Origin: Candidatus Omnitrophota bacterium
Lineage (GTDB): Bacteria > Omnitrophota > Gorgyraeia > Gorgyraeales > Gorgyraeaceae
Length of the DNA stretch: 64,000 bases
Assembly (NCBI GenBank): GCA_042571405.1
Contig: JBHPHU010000002.1
Coordinates: forward strand, 2,787-66,786
Reading direction: 5' to 3'
The position numbers and the translations under genes were made by a program. Every line of letters begins with the position of its first letter. Position 1 is the stretch's first letter. Positions 6,677-60,438 of this stretch are shown one piece after another. The notes under the pieces are model-generated. The model did not search any database and was not told the origin of the DNA. It saw nothing but the letters and a program-made list of their open reading frames with translations.

Positions 6677-7690
6677 GTGGTAAAGATAGGTATAGTTGGG
6701 TGCGGTTATTGGGGACCTAATTTAATAAGGAATTTTTTTCAAGCCAAAGATTCAGAGCTGTGCGCGCTTTGCGATACGAATGAAAAGAGATTAAAAGAGA
6801 TGAAAGAGACCTATTTCGTAAAGAAGAGCTTTACGGATTATAAGTCCATGCTTAAGGATCCTGAAATAGAGGCTGTTGTTATTGCTACTCCTCCAAAGAC
6901 ACATTATTCGCTTGTGCAAGAGGCACTTTCCAGCAACAAGCATGTCTTGGTCGAAAAACCACTGGCCTTCAACACAAAAGAGTCAAAAGATCTAGTAGAA
7001 TTAGCCAAGACCAAAAAGCGGATCTTAATGGTGGGGCATACATTTGAATTTAATCCTGCAGTGATTAAAATGAAGGAGTGCATCACCAGTGGCGAGTTAG
7101 GAAAGATATCTTATATATATTCCACCAGGGTAAATCTAGGCCGGGTGCAGGAGAATATAAACGCGATCTGGAGTCTTGCCCCTCATGACGTATCCATAAT
7201 CCACTTTATACTGGGATCTATGCCTGTCAGAGTCAGGGCTTATGGCAGTTCACATATAAACAAGGGTATAGAGGATGTAGTTTTTATCAACCTGGAATTT
7301 AAAGATAATGTCATGGCGCATATACACGTGAGCTGGCTGGATCCGAGCAAGATAAGAAAGATGACAGTGGTCGGCTCTAAAAAGATGCTTATATATGATG
7401 ATATTGACAATGAGGGAAAGATAAAGATATACGATAAGGGCGTGGATAGATTTTCTCTGGAAGATAGTTCTTACGGGGTATATCAGACAAAACTCAGAGC
7501 CGGAGATATTACTATGCCAAAGTTGCGGCTCTATGAGCCATTGCGCAGGGAATGCGAACACTTCATAGAGTGTATTATAAATAACAAAAACCCTGATACT
7601 GATGGTGAGAACGGTTTAAGGGTGGTGAGTGTTTTAGAGGCAGCGCAGATGTCTTTGGAACAAGACGGTAAGGTGGTGGAAATAAAATGA
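6677..7690 (+). CDS. Gfo/Idh/MocA-family NAD-dependent sugar oxidoreductase (WbpB-like)
   Basis: N-terminal Rossmann motif KIGIVGCGYWG and EKPLA motif. First gene of an oxidoreductase-acetyltransferase-aminotransferase triad. GTG start. Confidence 0.8.
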   Translation: MVKIGIVGCGYWGPNLIRNFFQAKDSELCALCDTNEKRLKEMKETYFVKKSFTDYKSMLKDPEIEAVVIATPPKTHYSLVQEALSSNKHVLVEKPLAFNTKESKDLVELAKTKKRILMVGHTFEFNPAVIKMKECITSGELGKISYIYSTRVNLGRVQENINAIWSLAPHDVSIIHFILGSMPVRVRAYGSSHINKGIEDVVFINLEFKDNVMAHIHVSWLDPSKIRKMTVVGSKKMLIYDDIDNEGKIKIYDKGVDRFSLEDSSYGVYQTKLRAGDITMPKLRLYEPLRRECEHFIECIINNKNPDTDGENGLRVVSVLEAAQMSLEQDGKVVEIK

Positions 7691-9653: not shown

Positions 9654-9811
9654 TTTTGTACCACCCAGCTCAGTACCTTTGGAGGCATCGTTGGACCGAG
9701 CGGGCACGGTGTCCGCCGAAGGCGGACGAGCGAGGGGCAACAATGAGCAAAAATTTCCTCGCTGGGGAAATTTTTGTGTCCTCCAAAGGTACTGAGCTGG
9801 GTGGTGCAAAA
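9654..9811. repeat. 158-nt element closed by a 32-bp inverted repeat (one T/G mismatch) with two internal hairpins
   Basis: TTTTGTACCACCCAGCTCAGTACCTTTGGAGG (9654-9685) pairs with its complement at 9780-9811. Inner hairpins are gtccgcc-gaa-ggcggac (9711-9727) and aaaaatttcc/ggaaattttt (9749-9775). Confidence 0.85.
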
Positions 9812-9848: not shown

Positions 9849-10913
9849 ATGGATAAGCTTAGAATAGACAGTCATAAGTTAATGTATCACATTGATAGAG
9901 TCGAGAAATGGCAGAAAAATAGACAGGTCTCGCCTATCTACCTTGAGATTGCGCCTTCCGGGGGATGTAACCATCGCTGTGTCTTTTGCGCATTGGATTA
10001 TATAGGATACAAGCCGCAGTTTCTGGACACAGGGGCATTGATGAGGGCGGTTAAAGATGCTGCCCGCTGCGGAGTAAAGAGCATAATGTATGCGGGTGAG
10101 GGCGAACCACTTTTGCATAAAGACATAGCAGATATTGTAAATCGTACAAAGAGATTGGGTATTGATGTTGCCATTACTACGAACGGCGTATTTTTAAATG
10201 ATAAGGTAATAAAGCGTTGCCTCAAAGACCTTTCATGGATAAGGATAAGTTTTAACGCAGCCAGCGCAAAGACATATGAGAAGGTTCATAGATGTCCGAA
10301 GGGTGATTTTGAAAAGACACTTTCTAATCTTAGGCAGGCTGTAGCTTATAAGCGTAAACATAAGTTAGATTGCGTGATCGGCGTACAAATGCTTTTGATC
10401 CCGGAAAATAGAAACGAGGCGCTTAAGCTGGCAAGACTTTTAAAAAAGATAGGCGTGGATTATTTGACAATAAAACCTTTTTCCAAACATCCGATGAGCC
10501 ATTGCAATATGGACAAGGCCTTCAGGTACGGCAGTTTTTTATATCTGGAAAAGGAGCTTGAGAAAATAGCCACAAAAGATTTTGCGATAATATTCCGTTC
10601 GCATACGATGAAGAAGCTGAAGGAAGGTAGATTTTACAGGCATTGTCTGGGGTTGCCTTTTTGGGCTTACATAGACGCGGGAGGCGATGTTTATGCCTGC
10701 AGCGCGTACTTAGGAAATAAGAAATTTATATACGGAAATATCCGTGGACATAGATTTTCAGATATTATAAAGAGCAAAAGACGCAGAGACATTTTAAAAA
10801 TGGCTGCGACAAAACTGGATACGAGCAAGTGCCGCGAGATATGCAGGCTCGATGAGATAAACAGGTATCTCTGGGAACTGAAAAACCCTTCGCCGCATGT
10901 GAATTTTATATAA
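9849..10913 (+). CDS. Radical SAM enzyme with C-terminal SPASM/twitch-like Cys-rich domain
   Basis: CNHRCVFC (CxxxCxxC), GEGEPLL, and C-terminal C..PF...I...G.V..C ... CREIC. Paralog of 15504..16607; both end in HVNFI. Confidence 0.85.
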   Translation: MDKLRIDSHKLMYHIDRVEKWQKNRQVSPIYLEIAPSGGCNHRCVFCALDYIGYKPQFLDTGALMRAVKDAARCGVKSIMYAGEGEPLLHKDIADIVNRTKRLGIDVAITTNGVFLNDKVIKRCLKDLSWIRISFNAASAKTYEKVHRCPKGDFEKTLSNLRQAVAYKRKHKLDCVIGVQMLLIPENRNEALKLARLLKKIGVDYLTIKPFSKHPMSHCNMDKAFRYGSFLYLEKELEKIATKDFAIIFRSHTMKKLKEGRFYRHCLGLPFWAYIDAGGDVYACSAYLGNKKFIYGNIRGHRFSDIIKSKRRRDILKMAATKLDTSKCREICRLDEINRYLWELKNPSPHVNFI

Positions 10914-10927
10914 TTGTATGATAAAAA

Positions 10928-10976
10928 GAAACCACAGAGGACACAGAGATTTTTTAGAATTTTTCTCTGTGACCTC
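10928..10976 (+). repeat. 'CACAGAG' hairpin repeat, copy A
   Basis: GAAACCACAGAGGACACAGAG, then an A/T loop, then TCTCTGTGACCTC. Begins 15 nt after the radical-SAM gene stop. Confidence 0.8.
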
Positions 10977-11131
10977 AAGATAAATGTATTTTATGACACA
11001 ATATAAGTAAATTGAAGATATAGAAAAAATACAATAAAACAAATTTTATAGATTTATAAGTTTTTAGGATTTTATTTTATAAGGTAAGCATCAATAGTGT
11101 TGTTATAAGAAGAAGCTATTTAAATAGAAGA

Positions 11132-11175
11132 GAACACAGAGAAAACCATAAAAACCTCTGTGCTCTCTGTGGTTT
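11132..11175 (-). repeat. 'CACAGAG' hairpin repeat, copy B (inverted relative to A)
   Basis: GAACACAGAG..CCTCTGTGCTCTCTGTGGTTT is the reverse complement of the copy A/C core. Convergent with copy A across about 155 bp of AT-rich spacer. Confidence 0.8.
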
Positions 11176-11180
11176 CATTT

Positions 11181-12155
11181 ATGAAGAAAAAAAAGATCCC
11201 GCAGAAAATTTTGACATGGCTTTTTGAGACAATGCTTAAGATCAGGATGGTCGAGGAGAAGATAATCGAGCTTTATCCTGAGCAGGAGATGCGCTGTCCT
11301 GTACATCTCTGCGTAGGGCAGGAAGCGATTGTTTCAGGTGTCTGCGCAAATCTAAAAAAACGCGATTATGTTTTTAGTAATCACAGGAGCCACGGCCATT
11401 ATATTGCCAATGGTGGCGATTTAAAGGGTTTGATGGCTGAGCTCTATGGTAGGGTTACGGGCTGCTCAAAAGGTAAGGGTGGTTCTATGCATCTTGTGGA
11501 TGTGGAGAATAGTTTTATGGGTAGCTCTGCAATAGTGGGCGGAGGTATTCCTATTGCTGTTGGCGCAGCTCTGGGTTCCCGAATACGCGGAGAAAAGAGG
11601 ATAAGCGTTGTATTTTTTGGTGATGGCGCAGCGGATGAGGGTACTTTTAACGAGAGTTTGAATTTCGCCGCATTGAAGAGATTACCTGTTTTATTTGTAT
11701 GTGAGAATAATTTTTATGCGACAAATTCACCGCAGTCTGCCAGGCACGCAATGGATAATATCTATAAAAAGGGCCTGGTGTATGGAATTGAGGGAGCGAG
11801 AGTGGACGGCAATGATGTTCTAGAGGTTTTTGAGATAGCCAGGGCAGCAGTGGAAAAAATAAGAAAAGGCAAAGGCCCTGCTTTGCTTGAATGCAGGACC
11901 TACAGGTGGAAAGGGCATGTGGGTCCGGATTGTGATTTTGAAAAAGGCTGTAGGCCCAAGGAAGAGCTTGAAATATGGCTTAAGAAGTGCCCCATAGAAA
12001 AATTCGCAAGATCGATTTTGAAAAATAATAACACTTTACAAAAAAATGCGGAGAAGATGCGAAAGAGATTCGAAAAAGAGATCGGAGACGCTGTTTCTTT
12101 TGCGAAAGCCAGTCCGTTTCCGAAAAAACAAGATCTACTGGAGGATGTATATTAA
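11181..12155 (+). CDS. TPP-dependent 2-oxoacid dehydrogenase E1 component, alpha subunit (PDH/acetoin-dehydrogenase type)
   Basis: TPP-binding motif GDGAADEG...LPVLFVCENN. The track start (GTG 11160) lies inside repeat copy B, so ATG 11181 (MKKKKIPQ) is preferred. Confidence 0.85.
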   Translation: MKKKKIPQKILTWLFETMLKIRMVEEKIIELYPEQEMRCPVHLCVGQEAIVSGVCANLKKRDYVFSNHRSHGHYIANGGDLKGLMAELYGRVTGCSKGKGGSMHLVDVENSFMGSSAIVGGGIPIAVGAALGSRIRGEKRISVVFFGDGAADEGTFNESLNFAALKRLPVLFVCENNFYATNSPQSARHAMDNIYKKGLVYGIEGARVDGNDVLEVFEIARAAVEKIRKGKGPALLECRTYRWKGHVGPDCDFEKGCRPKEELEIWLKKCPIEKFARSILKNNNTLQKNAEKMRKRFEKEIGDAVSFAKASPFPKKQDLLEDVY

Positions 12156-13204
12156 TGCCTTGGACAAAGGTCTATCCTGACAGGACAGAGTTTGATAAGG
12201 CCTGCAAAGGCCAGGGTAAGACCCTGCGAGGCCTTACATATAGAGAGGCCATAAAAGAGGCAACCACTCTGGCATTGCAAGAAGATGACAGGGTTTTTTT
12301 AATAGGCGAGGGAATAGATGATGCAGGCGGTGTATTTGGCACTACCAAGGACCTGCATAAAAAATTCGGAAGATCCAGAGTGATTGATATACCCATCGCG
12401 GAGAATGCCATGACTGGTGTCGCGATAGGCGCGGCAATCGCGGGCACAAAACCCATATTTATTCATATGAGGGTAGATTTTTTGCCGATGTCAATGGATC
12501 AGATAGTGAACCATCTCGCGAAATGGAGTTATATGTTCGGCGCAAAGGTCAAGATACCATTGACCATAAGATCCATAATAGGGCGGGGCTGGGGTTCTGC
12601 TGCGCAGCATTCGCAGAGCTTGCAGGCATTGTTCATGCATGTACCTGGGTTAAAGGTTGCGATGCCATCTACACCTTATGATGTCAAAGGCCTGTTACTC
12701 TCTAGCATAAAAGGTAATTGCCCTGTGATTTTTATAGAGCACAGGTGGCTATATGAACATGTGGGTTATGTGCCGGAAGGGATTTACACAGTACCTTTTG
12801 GCAAGGGCTTAGTGCGCAGGGCCGGGAATGATGTTACTCTCGTGGGGATTTCTTATATGTTGTTCGAATCTTTAAAGGCGCAGGAGATATTATCTAAAGA
12901 AGGTGTAAGCGTTGAAGTAATAGACCCGCGCACATTAAATCCTTTGGACGAGGAATTAATCATCGAGTCGGTTAAAAAGACAGGCAGGCTGGTCATAGCT
13001 GATACTGGCTGGAAAAATTGCGGCTCATCAGCTGAGATAAGCGCGCGTGTATCAGAAAAGGCATTTGAACATCTGAGAGCGCCAATTGCAAGAATTGGTT
13101 TGCCTGAAGCGCCCACGCCCGCGTCTCCTGCCCTGGAAAAAGAATTTTACCCAGGTGCAAAAGATATAGTAAGCGCTATCAAGCAAAATCTAGCTTTTCG
13201 CTAG
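12155..13204 (+). CDS. TPP-dependent dehydrogenase E1 component, beta subunit (transketolase-like)
   Basis: Pyrimidine-binding and C-terminal transketolase-like domains (IDIPIAENAMTG, VIDPRTLNPLD). Start overlaps the alpha-subunit stop. Confidence 0.88.
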   Translation: MPWTKVYPDRTEFDKACKGQGKTLRGLTYREAIKEATTLALQEDDRVFLIGEGIDDAGGVFGTTKDLHKKFGRSRVIDIPIAENAMTGVAIGAAIAGTKPIFIHMRVDFLPMSMDQIVNHLAKWSYMFGAKVKIPLTIRSIIGRGWGSAAQHSQSLQALFMHVPGLKVAMPSTPYDVKGLLLSSIKGNCPVIFIEHRWLYEHVGYVPEGIYTVPFGKGLVRRAGNDVTLVGISYMLFESLKAQEILSKEGVSVEVIDPRTLNPLDEELIIESVKKTGRLVIADTGWKNCGSSAEISARVSEKAFEHLRAPIARIGLPEAPTPASPALEKEFYPGAKDIVSAIKQNLAFR

Positions 13205-13230
13205 ATTTTGCGCAGACCTCGCCACGCTTT

Positions 13231-14703
13231 TTGGCGGGTCAGGAAAGTCATGAAGGGGCCGTTTTGAAGATAGCATTTTTACAGGAAACAGTTAATCAGA
13301 ATGTCGGAATAATGTATCTTTCAGCTCTCTTGAAAAGAAAAGGGTACCATTGCGAACTATTTGTAAAATCCCTTGAGAGAAATAATTTTTCCAGAGCAGT
13401 CAGTTCTTATGAGCCGGATATCCTGGGTTTTAGTGTTATCACTGGCTCTCATCATTGGGCCCTGGATACAGCCAGGCATTTCAAGAGATCACTGCCTAAT
13501 GTGTTAGTAATTTTCGGAGGGCCTCACCCTACCTATTTTCCGGAAATAGTAAATGAAGAAATGGTAGATGTTATCGCGCGCGGGGAGTCTGAGGTTTCTT
13601 TCCCTGAATTGGCGAAGAGAGTGGAAGAAGGGAGAGACTTTTCTGATATTCTGGGTCTATGGGTGAATAAAGGTGGTCATGTGCACAGAAATGATGTCGC
13701 CCCTTTAGTGGAAGATCTCTCGTCATTGCCTCATCCTGATCATTCCCTATACTTGAAATACGGATTTTACAAGGAGCAGACAGAGGTCCCTTTCAGTACC
13801 ATACGCGGATGTCCTTTTAAGTGCGCTTTTTGTTATAATCATACCAAGGCCGGACTCTATCGCGGCAAGGGCCGTTTTGTGCGCACCAGAGAGGTAAGAG
13901 ATGTGATAGAAGAGATGAGAGCGGCTCGCCATCTCTATCCGAATATGCAAACAGTCATTCTTTATGATGACATTGTCGGGATGAATAAAGAATGGCTTGT
14001 CAGATTTTGCGATGAATATATAAAGTATATTGATATGCCCTGGTTTACCAGTTTAAGACCTGATATGGCCGATGAATCTATAATCAAGAAAATGTCAGAG
14101 GCAAAGTGTTTCTGTCTTTCAATGGGCGTTGAGACAGGGGATGAGGAGCTAAGGAGTAGGATATTATGCAAGAAGATACCCAACTCTAAATACATCGAGG
14201 TCGCAGGCCTTATCCATAAATTCGGAATAAAGGTCAGGACATCAAATATGTTCTTTCTACCCGGAGAGGATATCCAAAAGGCCATTAAAACCGTTGAGAT
14301 CAATCGTCAGATGGCGACTGATTTTGCGTGGGGTTATACACTGCAACCATACCCAGGCACAGATATACATGAATATTCTGTAAAAAACGGCTATCTTTCT
14401 CCAGACTTTCAATTTGATGATATAGATCCATTGGGTCTCACCAAACAGATTGTAGAGACGAAGGATAAAAATAAGATTACTGTTTTGCATCGCCTCTTTC
14501 AGTTAGCCGTACATAACGGGTTTATATACAGGATGATCAAAAACCTGGTTATTATTCCTCCTAATCCTGTGTTTGATTTTCTATATTATTATTCGTTGAT
14601 CGCGAGTTATTCCAGGTATCATAATGTGAGTTTCTGGCGCGCGCTTTCTGTAGCATGGAGTAATTACATGGAGACCAGAAAAAAGAGCAGGGCCTTTGCG
14701 TGA
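13231..14703 (+). CDS. B12-binding-domain radical SAM enzyme (class B, methyltransferase-like)
   Basis: N-terminal cobalamin-binding-like domain (IAFLQE..GIMYLSALLKRKGY, DILGFSV) plus RGCPFKCAFC. Start is uncertain: TTG 13231 or TTG 13264. Confidence 0.8.
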   Translation: MAGQESHEGAVLKIAFLQETVNQNVGIMYLSALLKRKGYHCELFVKSLERNNFSRAVSSYEPDILGFSVITGSHHWALDTARHFKRSLPNVLVIFGGPHPTYFPEIVNEEMVDVIARGESEVSFPELAKRVEEGRDFSDILGLWVNKGGHVHRNDVAPLVEDLSSLPHPDHSLYLKYGFYKEQTEVPFSTIRGCPFKCAFCYNHTKAGLYRGKGRFVRTREVRDVIEEMRAARHLYPNMQTVILYDDIVGMNKEWLVRFCDEYIKYIDMPWFTSLRPDMADESIIKKMSEAKCFCLSMGVETGDEELRSRILCKKIPNSKYIEVAGLIHKFGIKVRTSNMFFLPGEDIQKAIKTVEINRQMATDFAWGYTLQPYPGTDIHEYSVKNGYLSPDFQFDDIDPLGLTKQIVETKDKNKITVLHRLFQLAVHNGFIYRMIKNLVIIPPNPVFDFLYYYSLIASYSRYHNVSFWRALSVAWSNYMETRKKSRAFA

Positions 14704-14733
14704 GCATCGGGTCTGAACAGGAGATATAATTAA

Positions 14734-15507
14734 GTGAATTCGTCTAAATTTTTCATGAGTATTGTAATGCCTACACTGAACGAGGAGAGCAACATCAGAG
14801 CCGCTATTGAAAGGACGCTGTCAGCGTTTGATAGTTTCAGTATAGACGGGGAGCTCATCGTAATCAATGATGGCAGCACGGACAGTACTTCCCGCATAGT
14901 CAGTGAAAAAATAAAAGGCGATAATCGCGTCAGGGTAATAAATCACAAGAGTCCACAGGGTATGGGCGCGAGTTTTTGGGATGGGGTCGACATGGCCAGG
15001 GGTGATATCGTGACTATGCTTCCGGGAGATAATGAGAATGATCCTTCTGAGACGTTGTGTTATGCCGGCTTAATGGATGATGTTGATATTGTCATTCCGT
15101 TTGCTTACAATAAAGAGGTGCGCAGCTTTTTCAGAAATTTTCTGTCAGATTTGTATCGTTTTATTATAAACCTGACGTTCATGACAAGTTTTAACCACAC
15201 TAACAGCACGGTTATTTGTCGTAAATCCATATTAAAGCAATTATCTCACAGGGATAGCAGCTTTTTTTATCAAACAGACATATTGATAAGGTCCGCCAAG
15301 ATGGGCTATCTTTTCTGCGAGGTGCCTTATCGTCTCGGATTAAGGGATACGGGAAGATCAAAGGCAACTTCATTCTCATCATTGTGCCAGATAATAAAGG
15401 GGTATATCGGATTGGTAAAAGATGTCTATTTTAAAAGAAAAAGAAAGCATGAGTTCACGGCTGATTCCCTGACTCTAAAACGATATAAGGGCAAGAGTGA
15501 GAAATGA
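14734..15507 (+). CDS. Family 2 glycosyltransferase (polyprenyl-phosphate sugar synthase-like)
   Basis: SIVMPTLNEE...VINDGSTD...LPGDNE (DxD). Alternative start is ATG 14755. Confidence 0.82.
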   Translation: MNSSKFFMSIVMPTLNEESNIRAAIERTLSAFDSFSIDGELIVINDGSTDSTSRIVSEKIKGDNRVRVINHKSPQGMGASFWDGVDMARGDIVTMLPGDNENDPSETLCYAGLMDDVDIVIPFAYNKEVRSFFRNFLSDLYRFIINLTFMTSFNHTNSTVICRKSILKQLSHRDSSFFYQTDILIRSAKMGYLFCEVPYRLGLRDTGRSKATSFSSLCQIIKGYIGLVKDVYFKRKRKHEFTADSLTLKRYKGKSEK

Positions 15508-16607
15508 GCGGACTAGTGTTGGACGGACATAAGCTACTCTGGCATAAAGACCGGGTGGATGCATGGTTGAGGGGGGAGAGGATAGCCCCGATTACTATGG
15601 ACTGCGCGCTGACAAGACGCTGTACTTACAAATGCGTCTATTGTTACGGCCAGCTGCAGGCCAATGACGAGAAGAGAATGACCAGGGACGTCATCTTTCG
15701 ATTTCTGGACGATGCGGCTGAGATAGGCGTAAAGGCTATAAGTTTTGTCAGTGACGGAGAAAGTAGTTGTTCGCCGCATCTATACGATGCCATAGCAAGA
15801 GGCAAAGCAAATGGACTTGATATGGCGCTTGGCACAAATGGCTATCTTTTGAAAGAGCATGGATTGGAAAAAGCCCTGACAGAGCTTACATATCTGAGAT
15901 TTAATGTTTCAGCCGGAGAGCCTGACAGGTATGCCGAGATCATGGGATGCAAGAAAGAATGTTTTCATAAGGTCCGCGACATCATAAAGAAATGCGTAAG
16001 CATAAAAAAGGAAAAAAAATTAGATGTTACGCTTGGTTTACAAATGGTGCTGATGCCTGAATTCGCGGATCAGATAATTCCCGTTGTAATGCTTGGCAGG
16101 GAATTGGGCGTTGACTATGTAATTATAAAACACTGCAGTGATGATGAGACTGGCGCCCTGGGAGTTGATTATTCTAAGTATGAGAAGTTGACGGATTTAT
16201 TGAAAGAGGCAGAGGCGCATTCACAGCCTGGGTATTTAGTAAAGGCGAAATGGTCAAAGATCTTAAGTAAGGGCAGGCGCAGGTATTCTCAATGTTATGG
16301 CCCGCCTTTTATCATACAGCTTTCCGGTTCGGGTCTTGTAGCGCCATGCGGCATGTTGTTTAACACAAAATACAAAAAATATCATATAGGCAATATCGCT
16401 GATACATCATTTAAACAGCTTTGGGAGAGCAAACGTTACTGGGATATCATGGATCTAATCGCTTCCAGGGAATTTGACGCCAAGACAATGTGCGGTACTC
16501 TATGTCTTCAACACAAGGTCAATGAATTTTTGTGGGACTTGAAAAATGAAAAGGTTGATTCAGAAGACGTGAAAGGCCAAGAGCCTATGCATGTCAATTT
16601 TATTTAG
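15504..16607 (+). CDS. Radical SAM enzyme with SPASM/twitch-like C-terminal domain (paralog of 9849..10913)
   Basis: CTYKCVYC, SDGESS, and C..PF....SGSG.V.PC ... MCGTLC. Shares the N-terminal 'HKL.(W/Y)H.DRV..W' and C-terminal 'HVNFI' with its paralog. Confidence 0.85.
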   Translation: MSGLVLDGHKLLWHKDRVDAWLRGERIAPITMDCALTRRCTYKCVYCYGQLQANDEKRMTRDVIFRFLDDAAEIGVKAISFVSDGESSCSPHLYDAIARGKANGLDMALGTNGYLLKEHGLEKALTELTYLRFNVSAGEPDRYAEIMGCKKECFHKVRDIIKKCVSIKKEKKLDVTLGLQMVLMPEFADQIIPVVMLGRELGVDYVIIKHCSDDETGALGVDYSKYEKLTDLLKEAEAHSQPGYLVKAKWSKILSKGRRRYSQCYGPPFIIQLSGSGLVAPCGMLFNTKYKKYHIGNIADTSFKQLWESKRYWDIMDLIASREFDAKTMCGTLCLQHKVNEFLWDLKNEKVDSEDVKGQEPMHVNFI

Positions 16608-16654
16608 CTGTACAGACGCGTTGTCTGCCGGAGGCAGACAACGCGTCTGTACAG
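16608..16654. repeat. 22-bp-stem perfect palindrome ('CTGTACAGACGCG' family, copy 1); probable terminator or REP-like element
   Basis: CTGTACAGACGCGTTGTCTGCC-gga-GGCAGACAACGCGTCTGTACAG starts at the base immediately after the stop codon of 15504..16607. No T-tract follows. Confidence 0.85.
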
Positions 16655-16664
16655 GGTCTAATTT

Positions 16665-17519
16665 ATGAAAGATATTATCATACCTAAAACCTATAATTAT
16701 ACAGCTATTTTTTTGACGCTAGCGTGCAATTACCGCTGCAGCTATTGCATAAATTATTTTGAAAACGGGAAATTCGATAAAAGAATTATAAGTGGTAAAG
16801 AATGGGTAGAGGGTCTTAATAGGATTATTTCACGTGATGACCTACCTATTACTCTGCAAGGAGGAGAGCCGACCTTACACAGGGATTTTATTTATATCGT
16901 GAATAATATAAAGCCGTCATTAAAAATAGACATGCTTACGAACATACAGTTTGACGTGGATAAATTTATAAAAGAAGTCAAACCCGGTAAGCTAAAGAGG
17001 GACGCGCCTTATGCCTCTATCAGAGTCAGTTTTCATCCTGAGGTCATGCGCCTGGATGAGACGCTTTTAAAGGTCTTAAAGATGCAGGATGCCGGGTTTA
17101 GTATTGGCATCTGGGGTGTGCTCCATCCTTTACAAAAAGACATTATCCTGAGGGCTCAAGAGAAGGCAAAGGGTATGGGCATAGATTTCAGGACAAAGGA
17201 ATTTTTAGGAGATTACGGCGAAGCGCTTCACGGCACTTATAGATATGAAGGCGCATGCGATAAAAAATTCAGAAAGAATTGCATGTGCAGGACCACGGAA
17301 TTTATAATCGGGCCTTCTGGCGCGGTATACAGGTGTCACAGTGACTTATACGAGGGCCGTAAGAGTGTAGGCAGTATTCTGGATCCTGAATTTGAGTTAG
17401 AATACGCGTTCAGGCCATGTGATTGGTTTGGCTATTGCAATCCTTGTGATATAAAGGTGAAGACAAACAGGTTTCAGAAGTTTGGGCATACCTCCGCGGA
17501 GGTAAAGGATATAAAGTGA
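16665..17519 (+). CDS. Radical SAM enzyme (small, single-domain)
   Basis: CNYRCSYC cluster motif, LQGGEPTLH, and additional C-terminal cysteines. Confidence 0.8.
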   Translation: MKDIIIPKTYNYTAIFLTLACNYRCSYCINYFENGKFDKRIISGKEWVEGLNRIISRDDLPITLQGGEPTLHRDFIYIVNNIKPSLKIDMLTNIQFDVDKFIKEVKPGKLKRDAPYASIRVSFHPEVMRLDETLLKVLKMQDAGFSIGIWGVLHPLQKDIILRAQEKAKGMGIDFRTKEFLGDYGEALHGTYRYEGACDKKFRKNCMCRTTEFIIGPSGAVYRCHSDLYEGRKSVGSILDPEFELEYAFRPCDWFGYCNPCDIKVKTNRFQKFGHTSAEVKDIK

Positions 17520-19162
17520 AGAGATCCCGCATCTTGGATTATATATTGTTAGCGTCTCTGGTGTCATTTATCACCATTCAACCGCATTTTATGCATGGCG
17601 CGATAAATTTCTATGAAACAGGACTGTATCTTCCCAGCATAAGCCAGTTGTTTCACGGAGCTATACCTTATAAAGATATGTTTGTTATGAGAGGGCCTCT
17701 GGAAATATTGATGCCGGCGTTTTTAATGAGCGTGCTTGGTAAACATATAGGTGTATTAAACGCCTATTTTTATTTTGGCACAGTTTTGACCCTTATAATC
17801 TATGCGTTTTTCGCTTTAAGGATTTTCAATACAAGGGGGTTCGCTTATCTCTTTACTATGGTTTTGACGGCCAGGACTTTTCCAAGAGTTACTTTTAATA
17901 TGTGGGGCGGGATAAGGTTTGGTCTGGGAATATTGGCCTTACTTTTAGCCGTAAATTTTTTAAGGAAGAAAAGGAAAACATGGTTATTGATGGCTGGTAT
18001 TGTCTCTGGTCTTGCGTTCTGGACAAGTTTTGAGATAGGGACGTTCAGTTTTGTTGCGATATTCGCGATGCTCGGATTTTTAGGATATTTCGAAAAGGAT
18101 GTAAAGGTTTTTGCAAAAGGACTGTTTACATATGCACTCGGAAGCTTTTTAGTTTTTATACCTTTCTTGTTGTACCTGCTTTTAAACAAAGCATTTTTAA
18201 GCTATAGCTCTACCTTAAAGGTAGTTTTAACGGGGATGACAGATGTGTTTGATGCCTCGCTCAGCTTTGAAACGCCTAGAAATTTTAAGGAGTTTTTATT
18301 CGCGTTGTCTCCTTTGAACCATAGCTTTAAATATACTTTGCCTTTTTTATTTTATCTTTCCATCGGGGTATATCAGCTAAGAAGGATCTTGAGGAAAAAT
18401 TTTTCAATAAAGGACCTCTCTATCACCCCTTTATTTATTTACGGTGTTTTCTTGTATCAGGGTTCATTCAGAGATATTGAAGGACCACAGTACAGGATGG
18501 CGTTACAACCTGTACTGCTCATAATGTTTTTCTATCTCGAAAGGCTGTATGTCCATGTTAAAAATATGAAATATGCCAATGGTTTTAAAAAGGCCGTCGC
18601 GTTTTTCTTCATTATAATGGTGCCATTTTATTCGGTAATGTTCTCTCTCTATAAATACAACAAGAGATTTTTTATTTTTAGAGAGATAAAAAGTTATGTA
18701 AAAGATAAAAGACCTCTTGATATTCCTTATGCTGGCCCGGAACCTCGCGCGATCACATCTATTCGCGCAAAGGGCGTAATAGTGCCTATGCACCAGGCAG
18801 AAGAAATAGACGGGGTCGTGGAATATATAATCTCGAATACTAAAAGAGATGACACAGTGTTTACATTTCCTGATATGGGCACTTATAATTTTCTTACTGA
18901 CAGGCCTCCTCTGGGGAAGTTTTATGCGGCAGAGCTATCTTTCTTTCATCCGGAATGGTTTGAAGAAATGATGACGGAATTAAGGGGTAAAAGGCCAGAA
19001 TTTGTTATCTGCGCCAAATATCTTTCAAGGCTCGAACAGTTTAGGCCGACAGTCGGAGCATATATTGACGAGGTAATGGAGTTTTTGGATAATAACTACG
19101 AGATAGCAAGGGAATATGATAAGGTCAATGTACTTAAACTCAAGGAAGACGCGGGGTATTAA
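17516..19162 (+). CDS. Polytopic membrane protein with C-terminal soluble domain (GT-C/ArnT-like glycosyltransferase or glycan polymerase candidate)
   Basis: At least 10 hydrophobic segments across about 380 aa, then a hydrophilic tail of about 160 aa. Sits in a glycan cluster. The functional assignment is inferred. Confidence 0.5.
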   Translation: MKRSRILDYILLASLVSFITIQPHFMHGAINFYETGLYLPSISQLFHGAIPYKDMFVMRGPLEILMPAFLMSVLGKHIGVLNAYFYFGTVLTLIIYAFFALRIFNTRGFAYLFTMVLTARTFPRVTFNMWGGIRFGLGILALLLAVNFLRKKRKTWLLMAGIVSGLAFWTSFEIGTFSFVAIFAMLGFLGYFEKDVKVFAKGLFTYALGSFLVFIPFLLYLLLNKAFLSYSSTLKVVLTGMTDVFDASLSFETPRNFKEFLFALSPLNHSFKYTLPFLFYLSIGVYQLRRILRKNFSIKDLSITPLFIYGVFLYQGSFRDIEGPQYRMALQPVLLIMFFYLERLYVHVKNMKYANGFKKAVAFFFIIMVPFYSVMFSLYKYNKRFFIFREIKSYVKDKRPLDIPYAGPEPRAITSIRAKGVIVPMHQAEEIDGVVEYIISNTKRDDTVFTFPDMGTYNFLTDRPPLGKFYAAELSFFHPEWFEEMMTELRGKRPEFVICAKYLSRLEQFRPTVGAYIDEVMEFLDNNYEIAREYDKVNVLKLKEDAGY

Positions 19163-19948
19163 ATGGCAGATGATAGGTTAGCTTTGTCTGTGGTGACGAT
19201 TGCGTACAATGAAGCACATAGAATAGGTGATTGCCTTAAGAGTACGCAGGGTTGGGCAGATGAGCATATAGTGGTGGATGATTTTAGCTCTGATAAGACA
19301 GTGGAGATTACAAAAAAATTTACAGATAAGGTTTTTCAGAGAAAGATGGATGTCGAGGGCGTGCATCGAAACTGGGCCTACCAGAAGGCAAAGAACGAAT
19401 GGGTGCTGAGCCTGGATGCAGATGAGACTGTTACAGAAGAGTTGAAACAGGAGATAAAAGATGCTATAAAGGGTGATGCGGGATTTAATGCCTATAGTAT
19501 ACCGCTAAGGACATATATCGGGGATTATTGGGTGCAGCATGGCGGCTGGTATCCTGCTGGAAAGCTCCGTCTTTTTAAGAGATCAAGGTTTAAGTACGAG
19601 GAGGTTGGCGTGCATCCAAGGATAATTCTCGACGGTAAATGCGGGCATCTGACAAAGGATATTATACATAGGGGTTATGTGGATTTTTCAGACCTTTTTT
19701 CTGGACTTAATCGCCAGACAGATCTTGAGGCAGAGAAGTGGTTTAATGAGAAACGAAAGATCGGTGGTTTAAAGATGTTCCGGAAGGCCTGTGACAGGTT
19801 TTTCCGCAGCTATGTTAGAAAAAAAGGATATAAAGACGGAGTAGTAGGCTTTGTTATAGCAACTCATGGCGCAATGTATCAAATTTTAAGTTTCGCAAAA
19901 TACTGGGAAAAGCAAAGAAACCACAGAGAGCACAGAGAAATGTTATAG
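19163..19948 (+). CDS. Family 2 glycosyltransferase
   Basis: LSVVTIAYNE...VVDDFSSD...LDADE (DxD). The last ~11 codons (KQRNHREHREML) are encoded by the CACAGAG repeat. Confidence 0.85.
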   Translation: MADDRLALSVVTIAYNEAHRIGDCLKSTQGWADEHIVVDDFSSDKTVEITKKFTDKVFQRKMDVEGVHRNWAYQKAKNEWVLSLDADETVTEELKQEIKDAIKGDAGFNAYSIPLRTYIGDYWVQHGGWYPAGKLRLFKRSRFKYEEVGVHPRIILDGKCGHLTKDIIHRGYVDFSDLFSGLNRQTDLEAEKWFNEKRKIGGLKMFRKACDRFFRSYVRKKGYKDGVVGFVIATHGAMYQILSFAKYWEKQRNHREHREML

Positions 19949-19971
19949 TTTAAAAAAATCTCTGTGGTCTC
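19917..19971 (+). repeat. 'CACAGAG' hairpin repeat, copy C
   Basis: GAAACCACAGAGAGCACAGAG...CTCTGTGGTCTC. Overlaps the 3' end and stop codon of the GT2 gene. Confidence 0.8.
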
Positions 19972-19976
19972 GTATT

Positions 19977-20118
19977 TTGCTTAAATGCGAATATCGAAAT
20001 CCGAATCTCGAAACAAATTCGAAATTGAAAATTCTAAATCTTAAATACTATGTTTAGAATTTTAGATTTAGAATTTATAATTTGTTTCGAATTTCGATAT
20101 TCGAATTTCGGATTTAAA
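19977..20118. repeat. ~140-bp 'CGAAAT' long palindromic element, copy a
   Basis: Left arm is ttaaatgcgaatatcgaaatccgaatctcgaaacaaattcgaaatt. Right arm is aatttgtttcgaatttcgatattcgaatttcggatttaa. The right half closely matches copies b and c. Confidence 0.85.
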
Positions 20119-20130
20119 CATATATTATTA

Positions 20131-20178
20131 GAGCACACAGAGAAAAACTATAAAAAACCTCTGCGTACTCTGTGGTAT
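20131..20178 (-). repeat. 'CACAGAG' hairpin repeat, copy D (inverted relative to C)
   Basis: GAGCACACAGAG...CCTCTGCGTACTCTGTGGTAT. Convergent with copy C; the pair brackets CGAAAT element a. Confidence 0.75.
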
Positions 20179-20217
20179 ATTTTTTTGACAATACGGAAGA
20201 CAACGAAAGGAGAAAAA

Positions 20218-21258
20218 ATGAAAATATTGGTTACTGGCGGTGCCGGGCTTGTGGGCTCTCATACCGCGGAATATTATTCCAAAAAGGGCGACGAGGTTAT
20301 CGTGCTGGATAATTTAATGAGGTCCAATTTATTTGGATACAACAAAGAGAGCGTGGAGTTTAACTGGAATTATCTGGGAGAACTCGAGAATGTAAAGCGG
20401 ATAAAGGGAGATGTGAGGGAAGAAAAGGATGTGATGAAGGCGCTTGGCAGCGGAGTAGATGTGGTCATACATACTGCAGGTCAGCCTGGAGTGCCTCTTT
20501 CCATGAAGATTCCAAGAGAGGACTTTAGCATAAATGCCTATGGCACACTTAATGTTCTCGAATGCCTCAGGCAGGTATCTCCAAAGGCCGCATTTGTGTA
20601 TTGCTCCACAAATAAAATTTACGGAGAGAATGTGGATAGTATTAGCCTGGAAGAAGAGGAAACAAGATACAGGTATAAAACTAAAAAAGGTGTCCCTGAG
20701 ACGCTATCTATGGATTTGACCGGACATACCCCATACGGCGCTTCAAAATACACAGGCGATATCTATACGCAGGAATACGGACATCTCTACGGTATGAAGA
20801 CAGCGGTATTTCGCATGTCGTGTATCTACGGCACCAGGCAGTTTGGTTTTGAGGATCAAGGTTGGGTGGCGTGGTTTGTCATAGCGAACCTGACAGGTCA
20901 GCCCATAGTTGTTTATGGCGACGGTAAGCAGGTAAGGGATTTATTGTACGTGGATGATTTAGTAGAGGCCTATGATAAGTTTATACACGGCGAGGTAAGG
21001 CATGATGTATTTAATATTGGCGGCGGGCCAAGGAATACCACTTCACTGCTGGAGTTTATAGCGTTAATAGAAAATAAAACAGGTATTAAGTTCAGGAAAG
21101 TGGATTATAAAGAGTGGCGGCCAAGCGACCAGAAGGTATACATATCAGATATTAGCAAGGTTTCGAAGGCGCTCAGCTGGAAACCAAAGATTACGCCTGA
21201 GAAAGGGTTGGAAAAATTGGTCGAATGGGTAGGCGGCAATACGAAATACTTTATATGA
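20218..21258 (+). CDS. NAD-dependent sugar epimerase/dehydratase (SDR family)
   Basis: ILVTGGAGLVGSH and YGASKYTGD (YxxxK). AAAGGAG RBS precedes ATG 20218. The track's 5' extension (20050-20217) is read-through of repeats. Confidence 0.88.
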   Translation: MKILVTGGAGLVGSHTAEYYSKKGDEVIVLDNLMRSNLFGYNKESVEFNWNYLGELENVKRIKGDVREEKDVMKALGSGVDVVIHTAGQPGVPLSMKIPREDFSINAYGTLNVLECLRQVSPKAAFVYCSTNKIYGENVDSISLEEEETRYRYKTKKGVPETLSMDLTGHTPYGASKYTGDIYTQEYGHLYGMKTAVFRMSCIYGTRQFGFEDQGWVAWFVIANLTGQPIVVYGDGKQVRDLLYVDDLVEAYDKFIHGEVRHDVFNIGGGPRNTTSLLEFIALIENKTGIKFRKVDYKEWRPSDQKVYISDISKVSKALSWKPKITPEKGLEKLVEWVGGNTKYFI

Positions 21259-21272: not shown

Positions 21273-21353
21273 TTCTCGACTTCGCTCGAACAATATTGGA
21301 CCCCGAGCAGCGTCGAGGGGCTTCGAGCGAAGGCCGAAGGCCTGAGTCGAGAA
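21273..21353. repeat. 'TTCTCGACTTCGCTCGAA' palindromic element, copy 1 (expanded)
   Basis: Left arm at 21273-21290. Right arm is split (cttcgagcgaag ... gtcgagaa) by an inserted ggcc-gaa-ggcc hairpin. Shares 25 nt (gttctcgacttcgctcgaacaatatt) with copy 2. Confidence 0.8.
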
Positions 21354-22059: not shown

Positions 22060-22077
22060 ATTTATAGCATGTTTTTA

Positions 22078-22220
22078 TTGCTTAAATCCGAAATACGAAA
22101 TCCGAATTTCGAAACAAATTCGAAATTAAAAATTGGAAGGCCTTAAACAATGTGTTTTGAATTTTGGATTTAGAATTTATGATTTGTTTCGGATTTCGAT
22201 ATTCGATTTTCGGATTTATA
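22078..22220. repeat. ~140-bp 'CGAAAT' long palindromic element, copy b
   Basis: ttgcttaaatccgaaatacgaaatccgaatttcgaaacaaattcgaaatt ... gatttgtttcggatttcgatattcgattttcggatttataaa. Confidence 0.85.
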
Positions 22221-22252
22221 AATATATTGTTTAGAAGAAAGCTTTAATTTAT

Positions 22253-23374: not shown

Positions 23375-24090
23375 AAATAGATATAGTGAAAAAAACATCC
23401 GGAAAAGTTTTAAGCCTTGTTAAGATCTTGGGGAGGATTGCAGATGAAGAGGGCGCGCGTGTTTATATAGTAGGCGGTCCTGTACGGGATATGCTGCTTG
23501 GCGTCTCTAATTACGATCTGGATTTTGTTGTAGAGGCAGACGCCATAAAATTCAGCGAAGTTTTAAATAAGACCTTGAAGGGGAGATTGACTGTCCATAA
23601 GGCCTTTGGCACAGCTACGATCGCGTATAAAGATTTCAGGATAGATGTAGTGACTGCGAGAAGCGAATCCTATGAACATCCTGCCGCTTATCCTGATGTG
23701 GAGCCAGCGACAATAAAGGAGGATTTGTTCAGGAGAGATTTTACTATAAACGCCATGGCCATAATTATAAATAAGAAGGGTTTCGGAGAGCTGATTGATT
23801 TTTATGGCGGCCTGAAAGACCTGAAAAAAGGTATTGTAAGAGTCATGCATGATAAAAGTTTTATGGATGACCCGACTCGCATATTCAGGGCTGTCAGGTT
23901 TTCGAGCAGGTTTAATTTTAAGATAGAATCTCATACAAAAAAATTAATGAAAGAGGCAGTCCTTGCGGGTTTTTTGGGAGAGGTGAACCGCGGAAGGATT
24001 AAGAAAGAGATGGAACTATTTTTAAAAGAAGATGATCCATTGAAATACCTAAGGGTATTTTCTAGGTTGATAGCACGTTTTAACCACTAA
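23371..24090 (+). CDS. tRNA nucleotidyltransferase/poly(A) polymerase-family protein (head and neck only, short)
   Basis: GGPVRDMLLG...DLDFVV catalytic head and RRDFTINAMA motif. Only 239 aa, ending immediately before CGAAAT element c. Confidence 0.7.
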   Translation: MKIDIVKKTSGKVLSLVKILGRIADEEGARVYIVGGPVRDMLLGVSNYDLDFVVEADAIKFSEVLNKTLKGRLTVHKAFGTATIAYKDFRIDVVTARSESYEHPAAYPDVEPATIKEDLFRRDFTINAMAIIINKKGFGELIDFYGGLKDLKKGIVRVMHDKSFMDDPTRIFRAVRFSSRFNFKIESHTKKLMKEAVLAGFLGEVNRGRIKKEMELFLKEDDPLKYLRVFSRLIARFNH

Positions 24091-24095
24091 TATGT

Positions 24096-24223
24096 ATATA
24101 AATCCGAAACTCGAAATCCGAAATCCGAGACAAATTCGAAATTCGAAGTTCGAATGTTTTGAATTTTGGATTTAGAATTTATGATTTGTTTCGAATTTCG
24201 ATATTCGTATTTCGAATTTAAGT
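24096..24223. repeat. ~130-bp 'CGAAAT' long palindromic element, copy c
   Basis: tataaatccgaaactcgaaatccgaaatccgagacaaattcgaaatt ... gatttgtttcgaatttcgatattcgtatttcgaatttaag. Ends 8 nt before the rbfA RBS. Confidence 0.85.
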
Positions 24224-24241
24224 AATAAATAGGAGGAAGAT

Positions 24242-44608: not shown

Positions 44609-44630
44609 TTGGTTGTATGGAATTTCAATG

Positions 44631-44674
44631 TTCTCGACTTCGCTCGAACAATATTCTTCGAGCGAAGTCGAGAA
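44631..44674. repeat. 'TTCTCGACTTCGCTCGAA' palindromic element, copy 2 (perfect 18-bp stem)
   Basis: TTCTCGACTTCGCTCGAA-caatatt-(c)TTCGAGCGAAGTCGAGAA lies 23 nt after the proC stop. Confidence 0.85.
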
Positions 44675-44698
44675 GAATTAATTTAAAGGAGAAAGAAG

Positions 44699-49780: not shown

Positions 49781-49824
49781 CCCCTGTACAGACGCGGTGT
49801 CTAGACACCGCGTCTGTACAGGGG
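49781..49824. repeat. 44-nt perfect palindrome ('CTGTACAGACGCG' family, copy 2)
   Basis: CCCCTGTACAGACGCGGTGTCT|AGACACCGCGTCTGTACAGGGG. Shares the core CTGTACAGACGCG.TGTCT with 16608-16654. Confidence 0.85.
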
Positions 49825-50897: not shown

Positions 50898-50969
50898 TGT
50901 GGTATAATTAATATTGATAAGCATAGTAGCTATATAGCCTTACAAGGCTATTTTTATGGGTGGATTATG
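50898..50969 (+). promoter_or_regulatory. Reiterated leader cassette, copy 1 (full: extended -10, hairpin, invariant core, start codon)
   Basis: TGgTATAAT (50900-50908); GCTATATAGC palindrome; hairpin ATAGCC-ttacaa-GGCTAT (50934-50951); TTTTTATGGGTGGATTATGA with uORF ATG at 50956 and main ATG at 50967. Confidence 0.75.
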
Positions 50970-52619: not shown

Positions 52620-52729
52620 GAACGGATTTTTGGAGATGTCTACCAAGTTGTAAAGGAAGTTGTCTTTGAGGTGTATAGGATTTGGAATTTCAGGGTATTT
52701 GAGGTATAATATGTAAAAAAGGAGGAACC

Positions 52730-53200: not shown

Positions 53201-53275
53201 TTTTATAATTGTGTTATTTGGGGTTACGCCACTTGTTGCAGTGCCCGCCTCTTGATACAATAAGATTATTCAGAT

Positions 53276-55930: not shown

Positions 55931-55941
55931 AGTCTTATTTA

Positions 55942-56014
55942 TATGGTATAATTATAGTTAGATAAGCATAGCAGCTATATAGCCTTACAAGGCTATTTTT
56001 ATGGGTGGATTATG
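55942..56014 (+). promoter_or_regulatory. Reiterated leader cassette, copy 2 (full)
   Basis: TGgTATAAT (55944-55952), ataagcatagcaGCTATATAGCCttacaaGGCTATTTTTATGGGTGGATTATGA, main ATG at 56012. Confidence 0.75.
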
Positions 56015-56845: not shown

Positions 56846-56850
56846 TTGCG

Positions 56851-56878
56851 CAGGGGCTATTTTTATGGGTGGATTATG
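56851..56878 (+). promoter_or_regulatory. Reiterated leader cassette, copy 3 (promoter-less, right half only)
   Basis: caggGGCTATTTTTATGGGTGGATTATGA follows directly after the stop of gene D. The left hairpin arm is reduced to ATAG, supplied by D's last codons. Confidence 0.7.
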
Positions 56879-60397: not shown

Positions 60398-60438
60398 CCC
60401 TATCTGATAGAGTACTTGATTATGTTTAAGAATTTACA

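Follow-up and report, generated by a model that had tools for sequence, protein, structure and literature searches.

Convergent CACAGAG hairpin pairs in an Omnitrophota operon as probable remnants of a family of small transposon-like elements

Hairpin pairs at the locus

The window analysed here is a 64-kb stretch of chromosomal DNA from a Candidatus Omnitrophota bacterium, and counts given for the window are limited to these 64 kb. It contains four copies of one hairpin unit of ~50 nt, arranged as two convergent pairs, A/B and C/D, which lie in a sugar- and glycan-biosynthesis operon. All genes near both pairs are on the + strand, in the order DegT aminotransferase, radical-SAM/SPASM gene (9849-10913), A..B, E1-alpha (11181-12155), E1-beta and a B12-radical-SAM gene. 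After further genes the order continues with GT2 (19163-19948), C..D, epimerase (20218-21258), HAD, MGDG synthase, a poly(A)-polymerase-family gene and DHH, and later with the dcw cluster and ileS. We propose that each pair is probably a degenerate member, without a gene, of a family of small transposon-like elements; the two are here called element 1 (A..B) and element 2 (C..D). Their parts are the following.

10928-10976, + strand: hairpin unit A, GAAACC-ACAGAG-GA-CACAGAG, 16-nt loop, CTCTGTG-AC-CTC
10977-11129: interior of element 1, 153 bp of AT-rich DNA without homology to CGAAAT palindromes
11130-11176, - strand: hairpin unit B, outer flank GGTTTCAT (reverse complement ATGAAACC), no outer terminal repeat left; E1-alpha ATG at 11181
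19917-19971, + strand: hairpin unit C, first 32 nt translated in the GT2 gene (tail ..KQRNHREHREML, then stop), no outer repeat on the left
19978-20125: CGAAAT tandem-heptamer palindrome 'a', filling the interior of element 2
20131-20178, - strand: hairpin unit D, GAG-CA-CACAGAG, loop, CTCTGCG-TA-CTCTGTGG

Four CACAGAG hairpins in two convergent pairs had been described in the original prediction for this DNA, and our analysis confirmed them far above chance with slightly corrected coordinates. We counted 22 copies of the heptamer CACAGAG in the window where 3.97 would be expected (sd 2.2; 22 reached in 0/100 shuffles), three of the double heptamer CACAGAG-N1-4-CACAGAG (0.00 expected) and six of CACAGAG-N8-38-CTCTGTG (0.01 expected). 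The consensus of the unit is GAAACC-ACAGAG-NN-C(A/G)CAGAG, an A/T-rich loop of 14-22 nt and CTCTGTG-NN-CTC. When it folds, a 2x2 internal loop separates a 3-bp helix from a helix of 7-8 bp, and the 5' extension GAAACCACA stays unpaired. The only variant heptamer, CGCAGAG, belongs to copy D and pairs as G.T on the GAAACC strand. Units A-D can be aligned over ~55 nt, the loop RTTTTTTAKRGTTTT is common to A, B and D, and the return arm is cut at the identical place (CTCTGTG-NN-CTC) in all four. Since the alignment spans the loop and an identically truncated return arm, the four units are homologous copies rather than hairpins of convergent origin.

Each pair folds together with its interior as one long hairpin, with -67.7 kcal/mol (z -6.7) for A..B and -96.3 kcal/mol (z -11.7) for C..D. 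The enclosed DNA is largely as it had been predicted, namely 153 bp (predicted as ~155) of AT-rich sequence in A/B and a CGAAAT palindrome in C/D. The two interiors are unrelated to each other, and a reading of the A/B interior as a decayed CGAAAT element was ruled out by the absence of homology. CGAAAT palindromes without CACAGAG units also occur at 22074-22230 and 24088-24230. The predicted nesting of the palindrome within C/D is compatible with the data rather than demonstrated by them, and interiors in the family are generally variable cargo: a GxxExxY gene (described below), other tandem-heptamer arrays or AT-rich DNA.

Empty sites in related genomes

Both pairs mark insertions, as orthologous sites in relatives show. 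The boundaries of the inserted elements and their outer repeats are the following.

10912-11179: element 1 (A..B), 268 nt between the radical-SAM/SPASM gene and the E1-alpha gene; empty site in L121, L123 and L124
10916-10927, + strand: putative degenerate outer terminal repeat GTATGATAAAAA, agreeing with the family end GTATTGTCAAAA at 9/12 positions
19917-20194: element 2 (C..D), 278 nt, left edge of a block absent from L245; one hairpin
20183-20194, + strand: intact right terminal repeat TTTTGACAATAC of element 2, the sole exact match in the window

At the site of element 1, three related Omnitrophota contigs (L121, L123 and L124, with E1-alpha proteins 80%, 78% and 75% identical to that of the window) have the radical-SAM stop codon overlapping the E1-alpha start codon as ATATGA. 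In the window the same genes are 267 bp apart, with TAT on both sides of the inserted block. No heptamer arrays were found in 49 kb of the relatives' loci. The assumption that each pair forms the two ends of one element of ~250-260 bp is hence supported, since the 268 bp of A..B are missing at the orthologous site in three relatives.

Element 2 is missing together with the neighbouring gene in a fourth relative, L245, whose GT2 is 82% identical. Synteny downstream is kept in L245, but GT2 overlaps HAD, and the DNA that is extra in the window comprises the C..D element, the epimerase gene (20218-21258) and a GC-rich hairpin (21273-21350). GT2 homologues stop 7-10 residues past a conserved YWE, and the longer tail of the window protein is partly encoded by unit C.

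The epimerase gene is itself inserted relative to L245, with element 2 on its left and the GC-rich hairpin on its right. This hairpin lies between epimerase and HAD, at the right edge of the block missing in L245, and is one of two copies (21273-21350 and 44621-44684) of a GC-richer hairpin family (TTCTCGACTTCGCTCGAA...). In addition, L245 has a different AT-rich heptamer-periodic palindrome (7460-7592) where the window has its first extra CGAAAT palindrome, upstream of the MGDG-synthase gene, which suggests that this site is old or has been occupied repeatedly.

Terminal repeats, target duplications and position

Relatives of the window units were collected by a metagenome scan for GAAACCACAGAGNNCACAGAG, which gave 120 stretches. 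With 'cap' we denote heptamers repeated every 9 nt; of the 108 GAAACC caps whose downstream sequence was long enough, 70 face a convergent partner. The right end of this subfamily has the form CTCTGTGG-N5 (~5 nt)-TTTTGACAATAC and was found at 25 ends, unit D of the window among them. The left end carries the inverse motif GTA[AC]TGTCAAAAG, followed by a conserved segment of ~28 nt (a ribosome-binding site and ATG-AAA) directly before CCACAGAG. The outer inverted ends are thus 12-13 nt long, GTAATGTCAAAAG / TTTTGACAATAC. Both features are specific to the subfamily. ATG/GTG-AAA precedes 38/116 GAAACC caps and 0/154 genome and 0/156 viral caps, and the terminal motif is present at 15/178 metagenome ends vs 0/176 genome and 0/160 viral ends. 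The original view that the hairpin pairs resemble terminal inverted repeats therefore needs correction: the true ends in this subfamily are the outer repeats of 12-13 nt, intact in the window only at D, and the hairpins are subterminal modules.

All terminal-repeat pairs span 99-645 nt, and the gene-less relatives 99-418 nt. Directly outside the terminal repeats, 9-bp direct repeats with 8/9 matches occur in seven independent elements (L292, L303, L308, which is identical to L363, L324, L334, L351 and L360), a small set, whereas permuted flanks gave at most 6/9 matches except for one duplicate locus pair. Target-site duplications are found in these relatives, while the flanks in the window are not significantly similar. 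Each of the seven duplications differs at exactly one position, which is more uniform than simple decay predicts.

The position of the elements is also fixed. In 15/24 distinct right ends the end lies exactly 23-24 nt before the first start codon of a long open reading frame (ORF), with a Shine-Dalgarno-like motif at +12 to +15; the exceptions to the spacing are mostly in-frame alternative start codons. Window end D, which belongs to the terminal-repeat subfamily, follows this rule: downstream of its repeat a Shine-Dalgarno-like AGGAG begins at +13, and the ATG of the epimerase gene (20218) is reached at +23. Both the right end of element 2 and its target position are canonical; the left repeat of the element is lost, and unit C is fused to the GT2 frame. 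Because the terminal repeats are mostly lost and element 1 shows no significant duplication, both window elements are fossil, gene-less copies.

Gene-less relatives in better condition retain traces of a gene. In the 99-nt L308 both terminal repeats and one hairpin are retained, and the ribosome-binding site and ATG of the missing gene are kept there as well as in L360. Such gene-less copies with a parental ribosome-binding site and ATG represent the usual relation between a miniature inverted-repeat transposable element (MITE) and its parent. A general rule by which the ribosome-binding site and ATG would be duplicated was rejected; it holds for L366, and elsewhere these sequences are part of the conserved left end of the element.

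A nuclease gene between the matching ends

In L301, L331 and L343, a GxxExxY gene lies between matching ends and hairpins, in elements of 404-645 nt. The 5' unit encodes the N-terminus (MKPQRPQRNTLCTQKEFPLK..., MKPQRxQR..) of the 125-140-aa GxxExxY protein in L343, L331 and L366, and in L301 it stands ~100 nt before the gene, which has a start of its own. At each of the four loci the stop codon is followed first by a 3' hairpin unit and next by the right terminal repeat. An all-against-all BLAST of 772 ORFs from 120 genome loci found no enriched neighbour genes except one cluster of five loci, which is GxxExxY. Moreover, 72/120 of the closest core homologues have cap-encoded N-terminal extensions (48 PQRxQR, 20 TExTE...SVNSVV and 4 HRxHR), which use the cap in one of three reading frames. 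These observations show a physical link between the hairpin elements and GxxExxY genes.

The cargo protein matches TIGR04256 'GxxExxY' (1e-41) and PF13366 PDDEXK_3 (3e-40) of the PD-(D/E)XK superfamily, and the catalytic residues E33...D72...E82-x-K84 (E...D...ExK) are conserved. A structure model of GxxExxY gave no informative fold match. The family comprises 20,499 clusters at 50% identity, and a survey of PD-(D/E)XK proteins describes it as of unknown function with 'multiple transfers, mixed clades' (PMC3424549). In the literature examined under GxxExxY, PF13366 and TIGR04256, mobility of these proteins is not addressed. No DDE or Y1 gene was found between matching ends in 3.3 Mb of loci. 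The GxxExxY nuclease is a candidate, and only a candidate, for the mobility enzyme.

Some GxxExxY proteins have two domains in tandem and a length of 250-295 aa, about 30 among the 150 best representatives. In L366 (GCA_030616165.1, 3980-4535) a GxxExxY cassette lies upstream of hisG, flanked by TTTTTTTATCAGGGTGAAAATATGAA; because this repeat duplicates the ribosome-binding site and start codon of hisG, the GxxExxY gene and hisG share their initiation region.

The cap across phyla and in viral contigs

Scanning the cap pattern CCACAGAGNNCACAGAG in one genome per species gave at least 120 matches, while the chance expectation for 15 specified bases in 596 Gb is ~1,100 hits. The matches listed come from Acidobacteriota, Planctomycetota, Chloroflexota, several proteobacterial classes, Nitrospirota, Bacteroidota, Verrucomicrobiota, Chlamydiota, Cyanobacteria, a Negativicute and a metagenome-assembled genome of an ANME archaeon. 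In 62-66% of the hits listed, a third heptamer stands in register outside the search pattern, and further unsearched features are purine-biased spacers, TT at -4/-3, a purine at -1 and an A-rich 5' flank. A convergent partner (within 400 nt, at most 3/15 mismatches) accompanies 81 of 131 caps from ~115 genomes (62%) vs 8 (6%) in the upstream control. Since the third heptamer and the TT-M-R flanks are conserved outside the pattern, and partners are found at 62% vs 6%, the family is real and not a product of chance.

Elements at genome loci span 51-341 nt (median 96), and 43-391 nt across the family, so the fixed distance between paired units expected for a MITE is not supported. Convergent pairing itself is the rule; however, solitary caps are common, with 38% of the caps at genome loci and 82% of those in viral contigs. 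Outward from the cap the inverted repeat extends by a median of 2 nt only, and right at the CC boundary there is no duplication. Direct repeats of greater length in the flanks are enriched (score of at least 10 in 5.6% vs 0.6% in controls) but present in a minority of elements only. The 2-nt spacers are Watson-Crick paired at 39% vs 34% in shuffles, with both positions paired in 30/141 hairpins, and because these spacers are mostly unpaired, forming a stem cannot be all that the heptamers are conserved for. Similarly built arrays of other heptamers (such as CGCAAAG, CGCGGAGA and ATCCGTG) occur in the same loci, and nesting in one palindrome is possible, as in L047. Moreover, A-rich heptamer arrays like the CGAAAT type of the window follow caps in unrelated contigs.

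A three-heptamer cap, for which chance matches are negligible because 22 bases are specified, has at least 120 matches in the viral contigs of IMG/VR; among the matches listed, 18% of caps have a partner. About half of the solitary viral caps lie within ~50 nt of a predicted start.

Several loci show further arrangements. On the IMG/VR contig 3300031565_000084 (L147, 9500-13400), solitary three-heptamer caps lie within ~15 kb, four of them directly upstream of consecutive minus-strand genes in sense orientation and a fifth apparently inside a coding region; in some cases AAATCGN heptamer arrays stand between the cap and the start codon. In viral contigs caps precede capsid- and tail-fibre-like genes. 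In L015 (4456) and L051 (7253) the cap is translated (SHRGHRD.. / SHREHRE..) within a conserved membrane protein of ~710 aa; the two proteins, from two Chloroflexi genera, are 76% identical, and the in-frame insertion has been retained. An acidobacterial locus (L082, 147-700) has three tandem repeats of ~187 bp, each beginning with a cap (TTAAACCACAGAGGACACAGAGGAACACGGAG).

Interpretation and alternative explanations

Our results suggest that the MITE reading of the original prediction is largely right, because relatives have terminal repeats, 9-bp duplications, fixed spacing to the start codon and a GxxExxY gene, with the corrections that the distance is not fixed and the hairpins are subterminal. 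In our model, an intact member would begin with a 9-bp duplication, GTAATGTCAAAAG, and a short ribosome-binding site with ATG-AAA, followed by the 5' hairpin unit (CCACAGAG-NN-CACAGAG, loop, CTCTGTG-NN-CTC) and the cargo. The cargo would be a GxxExxY gene whose N-terminus comes partly from the 5' hairpin, or non-coding DNA in miniature derivatives of 99-418 nt. The 3' hairpin unit (GAG-NN-CACAGAG, loop, CTCTGTG-NN-CTCTGTGG), ~5 nt, TTTTGACAATAC and the second copy of the 9-bp duplication would complete the element. Its right end is expected 23-24 nt upstream of the next start codon and ~12-13 nt upstream of the Shine-Dalgarno sequence.

Movement may be by cut- or copy-and-paste, with a mobility enzyme that would recognise the terminal repeat together with the tandem-heptamer stem as a hairpin or cruciform; this enzyme could be the GxxExxY nuclease acting in trans or a separate transposase. 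Element 1 went in where the stop and start codons of a translationally coupled gene pair overlap, and element 2 occupies the canonical position upstream of the epimerase gene. An inserted element would be co-transcribed and fold back on itself, which probably makes it tolerable inside an operon and may affect mRNA 3'-end stability or translational coupling.

Several observations weigh against this interpretation. In each window copy at least one end is no longer intact (A retains 9/12 positions, B and C none), and local alignment of the window flanks gave no significant target duplication (p 0.15-0.22). No GxxExxY gene (tblastn) or other candidate transposase with matching ends was found within the 64-kb window. 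Gene-carrying copies have weaker or no duplications (4/9 in L301, ~6/9 in L343), and in L366 the left repeat is missing and a perfect direct repeat of 26 bp, TTTTTTTATCAGGGTGAAAATATGAA, is present instead. In a diverse set of 150 representatives, heptamers encode only 2-7 of the 42 N-terminal extensions; because cap-encoded extensions are rare there, the link at the protein level is limited to one subfamily. We know of no PD-(D/E)XK protein of the GxxExxY family that transposes DNA. A simple transposon model does not explain the solitary sense-oriented caps upstream of phage genes, nor the cap inside a conserved ORF. Finally, the loci were chosen by the motif itself, partly on metagenome contigs without taxonomy, and the proportions given above are biased by this ascertainment.

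The alternative that deserves most attention is that the four copies are independent hairpins of the repetitive extragenic palindromic (REP) type, kept by the host for a role in RNA such as 3'-end protection, partial termination or modulation of coupling, with pairing being incidental. The context fits such a role in part. Caps are mostly intergenic, often just after stop codons, and stand between co-directional (57) or convergent (20) genes; their folds in the window are strongly stable, and the A-rich 5' and T-rich 3' flanks resemble bidirectional terminators. In the window, D is followed by a T-run (TATATTTTTTT, seven Ts), none adjoins A, B or C on the + strand, and a scan with an intrinsic-terminator consensus called none of the four units, because their loops are too long. 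On the other hand, ordinary GC-rich terminators with T-runs exist in the same organism. Among solitary caps, those of viral contigs favour the sense strand upstream of genes (37 vs 11), whereas those at genome loci have no orientation bias (8 vs 8). Furthermore, stem function needs neither a single heptamer across phyla nor conservation of heptamers around mostly unpaired NN spacers. Element 1 breaks a coupled gene pair that is intact in close relatives, and the terminal repeats and 9-bp duplications of relatives are signatures of insertion, not of a signal evolved by the host. We consider an RNA role as the origin of the four copies unlikely.

A second alternative takes the tandem heptamers as binding-site arrays for a DNA-bending or nucleoid protein, as has been proposed for the class 2 sites of Geobacter metallireducens. 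Conserved heptamers with variable 2-nt spacers are what protein contacts would give, and the genome paper (PMC2700814) describes 21 pairs whose motif TCTCCGTSY repeats every 9 nt like our heptamers and is complementary to CACGGAGA; the proposal is given there without experimental support. However, the identical motif spans phyla although no matching conserved dedicated binding protein is known, and copies lie inside ORFs and as recent insertions. Terminal repeats, duplications and the distance to the start codon would be left unexplained, and protein binding could belong to the transposition mechanism. Binding-site arrays are hence a quite improbable explanation of the family.

The weakest alternative, that the pairs are REPINs (REP doublets forming hairpins) mobilised by a single-copy REP-associated tyrosine transposase (RAYT, an IS200-like Y1 transposase) elsewhere in the genome, fits the two short inverted hairpins that fold together as one long hairpin but is highly improbable: the hairpin foot has no GTAG/CGTC tag and is flanked by TT-M-R or GAAA, tblastn with IS200/IS608 TnpA queries detected no Y1 transposase or RAYT/IS200-type gene in the window (a weak negative), REP families are lineage-specific while the cap spans many phyla, and the terminal repeats and 9-bp duplications of relatives are not products of Y1 transposition. 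The suggested membership in REP or bacterial interspersed mosaic element (BIME) families accordingly fails.

Returning to the transposon-like reading, a wider proposal may be made about its enzyme. GxxExxY proteins (TIGR04256/PF13366) might be the mobility nucleases of an unrecognised class of ~0.6-kb elements, with ends made of a 12-13-nt inverted repeat and heptamer hairpins, 9-bp duplications and fixed integration just upstream of the Shine-Dalgarno sequence; CACAGAG caps, including the solitary ones of phages, would then be footprints or recognition modules. This is possible but tentative, and at present we regard it as rather doubtful.

Relation to known systems

The nearest precedent is found in the genome paper of G. 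metallireducens. Aklujkar et al. (2009, PMC2700814) described 21 pairs of 'class 2 global regulator binding sites', each site with three TCTCCGTS[Y] repeats in tandem and the two partners on opposite strands, a variable distance apart, and proposed binding of IHF/HU without a test. These sites share with our family the 9-nt period, the complement of CACGGAGA, the opposite-strand pairs at variable distance and the location both between and within genes, and, as judged from a figure caption, they almost certainly belong to the same superfamily with a one-base variant of the heptamer. They differ in that one genome only is concerned and that mobility, terminal repeats, duplications and a gene link are not reported in the passages seen.

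MacGregor (2015, PMC4679880) described TAACTGA heptamer repeats, of the class of short tandemly repeated repetitive (STRR) sequences, across phyla in cyanobacteria and Beggiatoaceae. They are likewise short intergenic tandem repeats, often just upstream of start codons, with a patchy cross-phylum spread that suggests horizontal transfer by a mechanism not known. However, they have a 7-nt unit of other sequence without spacer and mostly form direct arrays, not hairpins. The CGAAAT palindromes of the window and the AAATCGN arrays beside caps resemble this class more than the CACAGAG units do.

With bacterial MITEs (Correia/CREE, RUP, Nezha) our elements share small size (99-418 nt), non-coding, multi-copy and intergenic nature, folding into hairpins and, in the relatives of the window copies, terminal inverted repeats, a fixed-length duplication (here 9 bp) and longer gene-carrying elements with the same ends. 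In contrast, the sole gene inside matching ends here encodes a 125-140-aa PD-(D/E)XK protein, GxxExxY, and no known transposase; subterminal heptamer hairpins with 9-nt period carry a motif common to many phyla; and the family position is fixed 23-24 nt upstream of start codons, while the window copies are without most of their terminal repeats.

REP, REPIN and BIME sequences are similar as short imperfect palindromes in inverted doublets that form a longer joint hairpin in operons and 3' regions. Our family differs by having no GTAG/CGTC tag, no detected RAYT, a cross-phylum motif, and terminal repeats with 9-bp duplications; it has no sequence relation to the motifs of Escherichia coli BIMEs, and its interiors are unrelated in elements of 43-391 nt. 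Rickettsia palindromic elements are also palindromic, can sit in frame in protein genes and are confined to one genus. In-frame units are a common trait, seen here in the Chloroflexi membrane protein and the C-terminus of the window GT2, without any sequence relation.

The family is not in Rfam: no match in the window reached the gathering score, and only generic long-hairpin hits appeared at E<=10. Neither a description of the family nor one of the target rule or the GxxExxY link was found in the searchable literature, where queries with sequence strings gave nothing relevant, and the sole mention found was the figure caption in the 2009 genome paper. The wider family, the target rule and the GxxExxY link thus appear undescribed in that literature.

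The window elements are decayed insertions, yet they reveal a repeat family widespread in environmental bacteria and viral contigs. Three of its properties are unusual: a cross-phylum heptamer module with 9-nt period, an insertion rule of 23-24 nt and a link to a very large nuclease family. The near-invariant spacing implies recognition of translation-initiation regions as DNA. If GxxExxY were the mobility enzyme, a function would be assigned to the family, a transposon type with only a PD-(D/E)XK protein would be added, and many spurious 'TEDTE/HRGHRE/PQRTQR' peptides in annotations would be explained. In practice such repeats break metagenome assemblies (most GxxExxY contigs are <3 kb) and cause false ORF extensions, such as the GT2 tail.

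Rejected candidates and other repeats of the window

Several other candidates were rejected. The IS256-type transposase (58317-59600) is not a partner of the hairpins, since its inverted ends (AATGTTGTGGAT..) bear no relation to the cap. In L120 an ORF of 411 aa with an Rx4H motif lies between convergent caps 1.5 kb apart; it is not a transposase. DnaA boxes do not fit at position 4 of the 9-mer, and a sigma-70 promoter using TTGACA in the terminal repeat has no -10 box at 17 nt. Integron attC, parS and complementarity to 16S rRNA positions 947-954 were dropped on inspection of the sequences.

The IS256-family element itself spans 58255-59723, with a Transposase_mut gene on the - strand (58317-59600) and 27-nt inverted ends at 58255-58281 and 59697-59723. 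A perfect palindrome with 22-bp arms (CTGTACAGACGCGTTGTCTGCC / GGCAGACAACGCGTCTGTACAG) lies at 16608-16654 between two radical-SAM genes; because these genes overlap (GTATGA) in L123, this palindrome is also an insertion at a coupled junction. A closely related second copy stands at 49781-49824, after a canonical terminator. In the 411-nt gap upstream of the radical-SAM gene there is a 32-nt inverted repeat (9654-9685 / 9780-9811) whose arms are 97% complementary and 94 nt apart. Finally, region 50946-62444 has six copies of a conserved segment of ~45-200 nt (GGCTATTTTTATGGGTGGATTATGATGGGGATTGGAAAAGGG...) spanning the 5' ends of successive ORFs without Pfam match (e.g. 50967-52619 and 60668-62278), which look like a paralogous family with a conserved upstream region and N-terminus.

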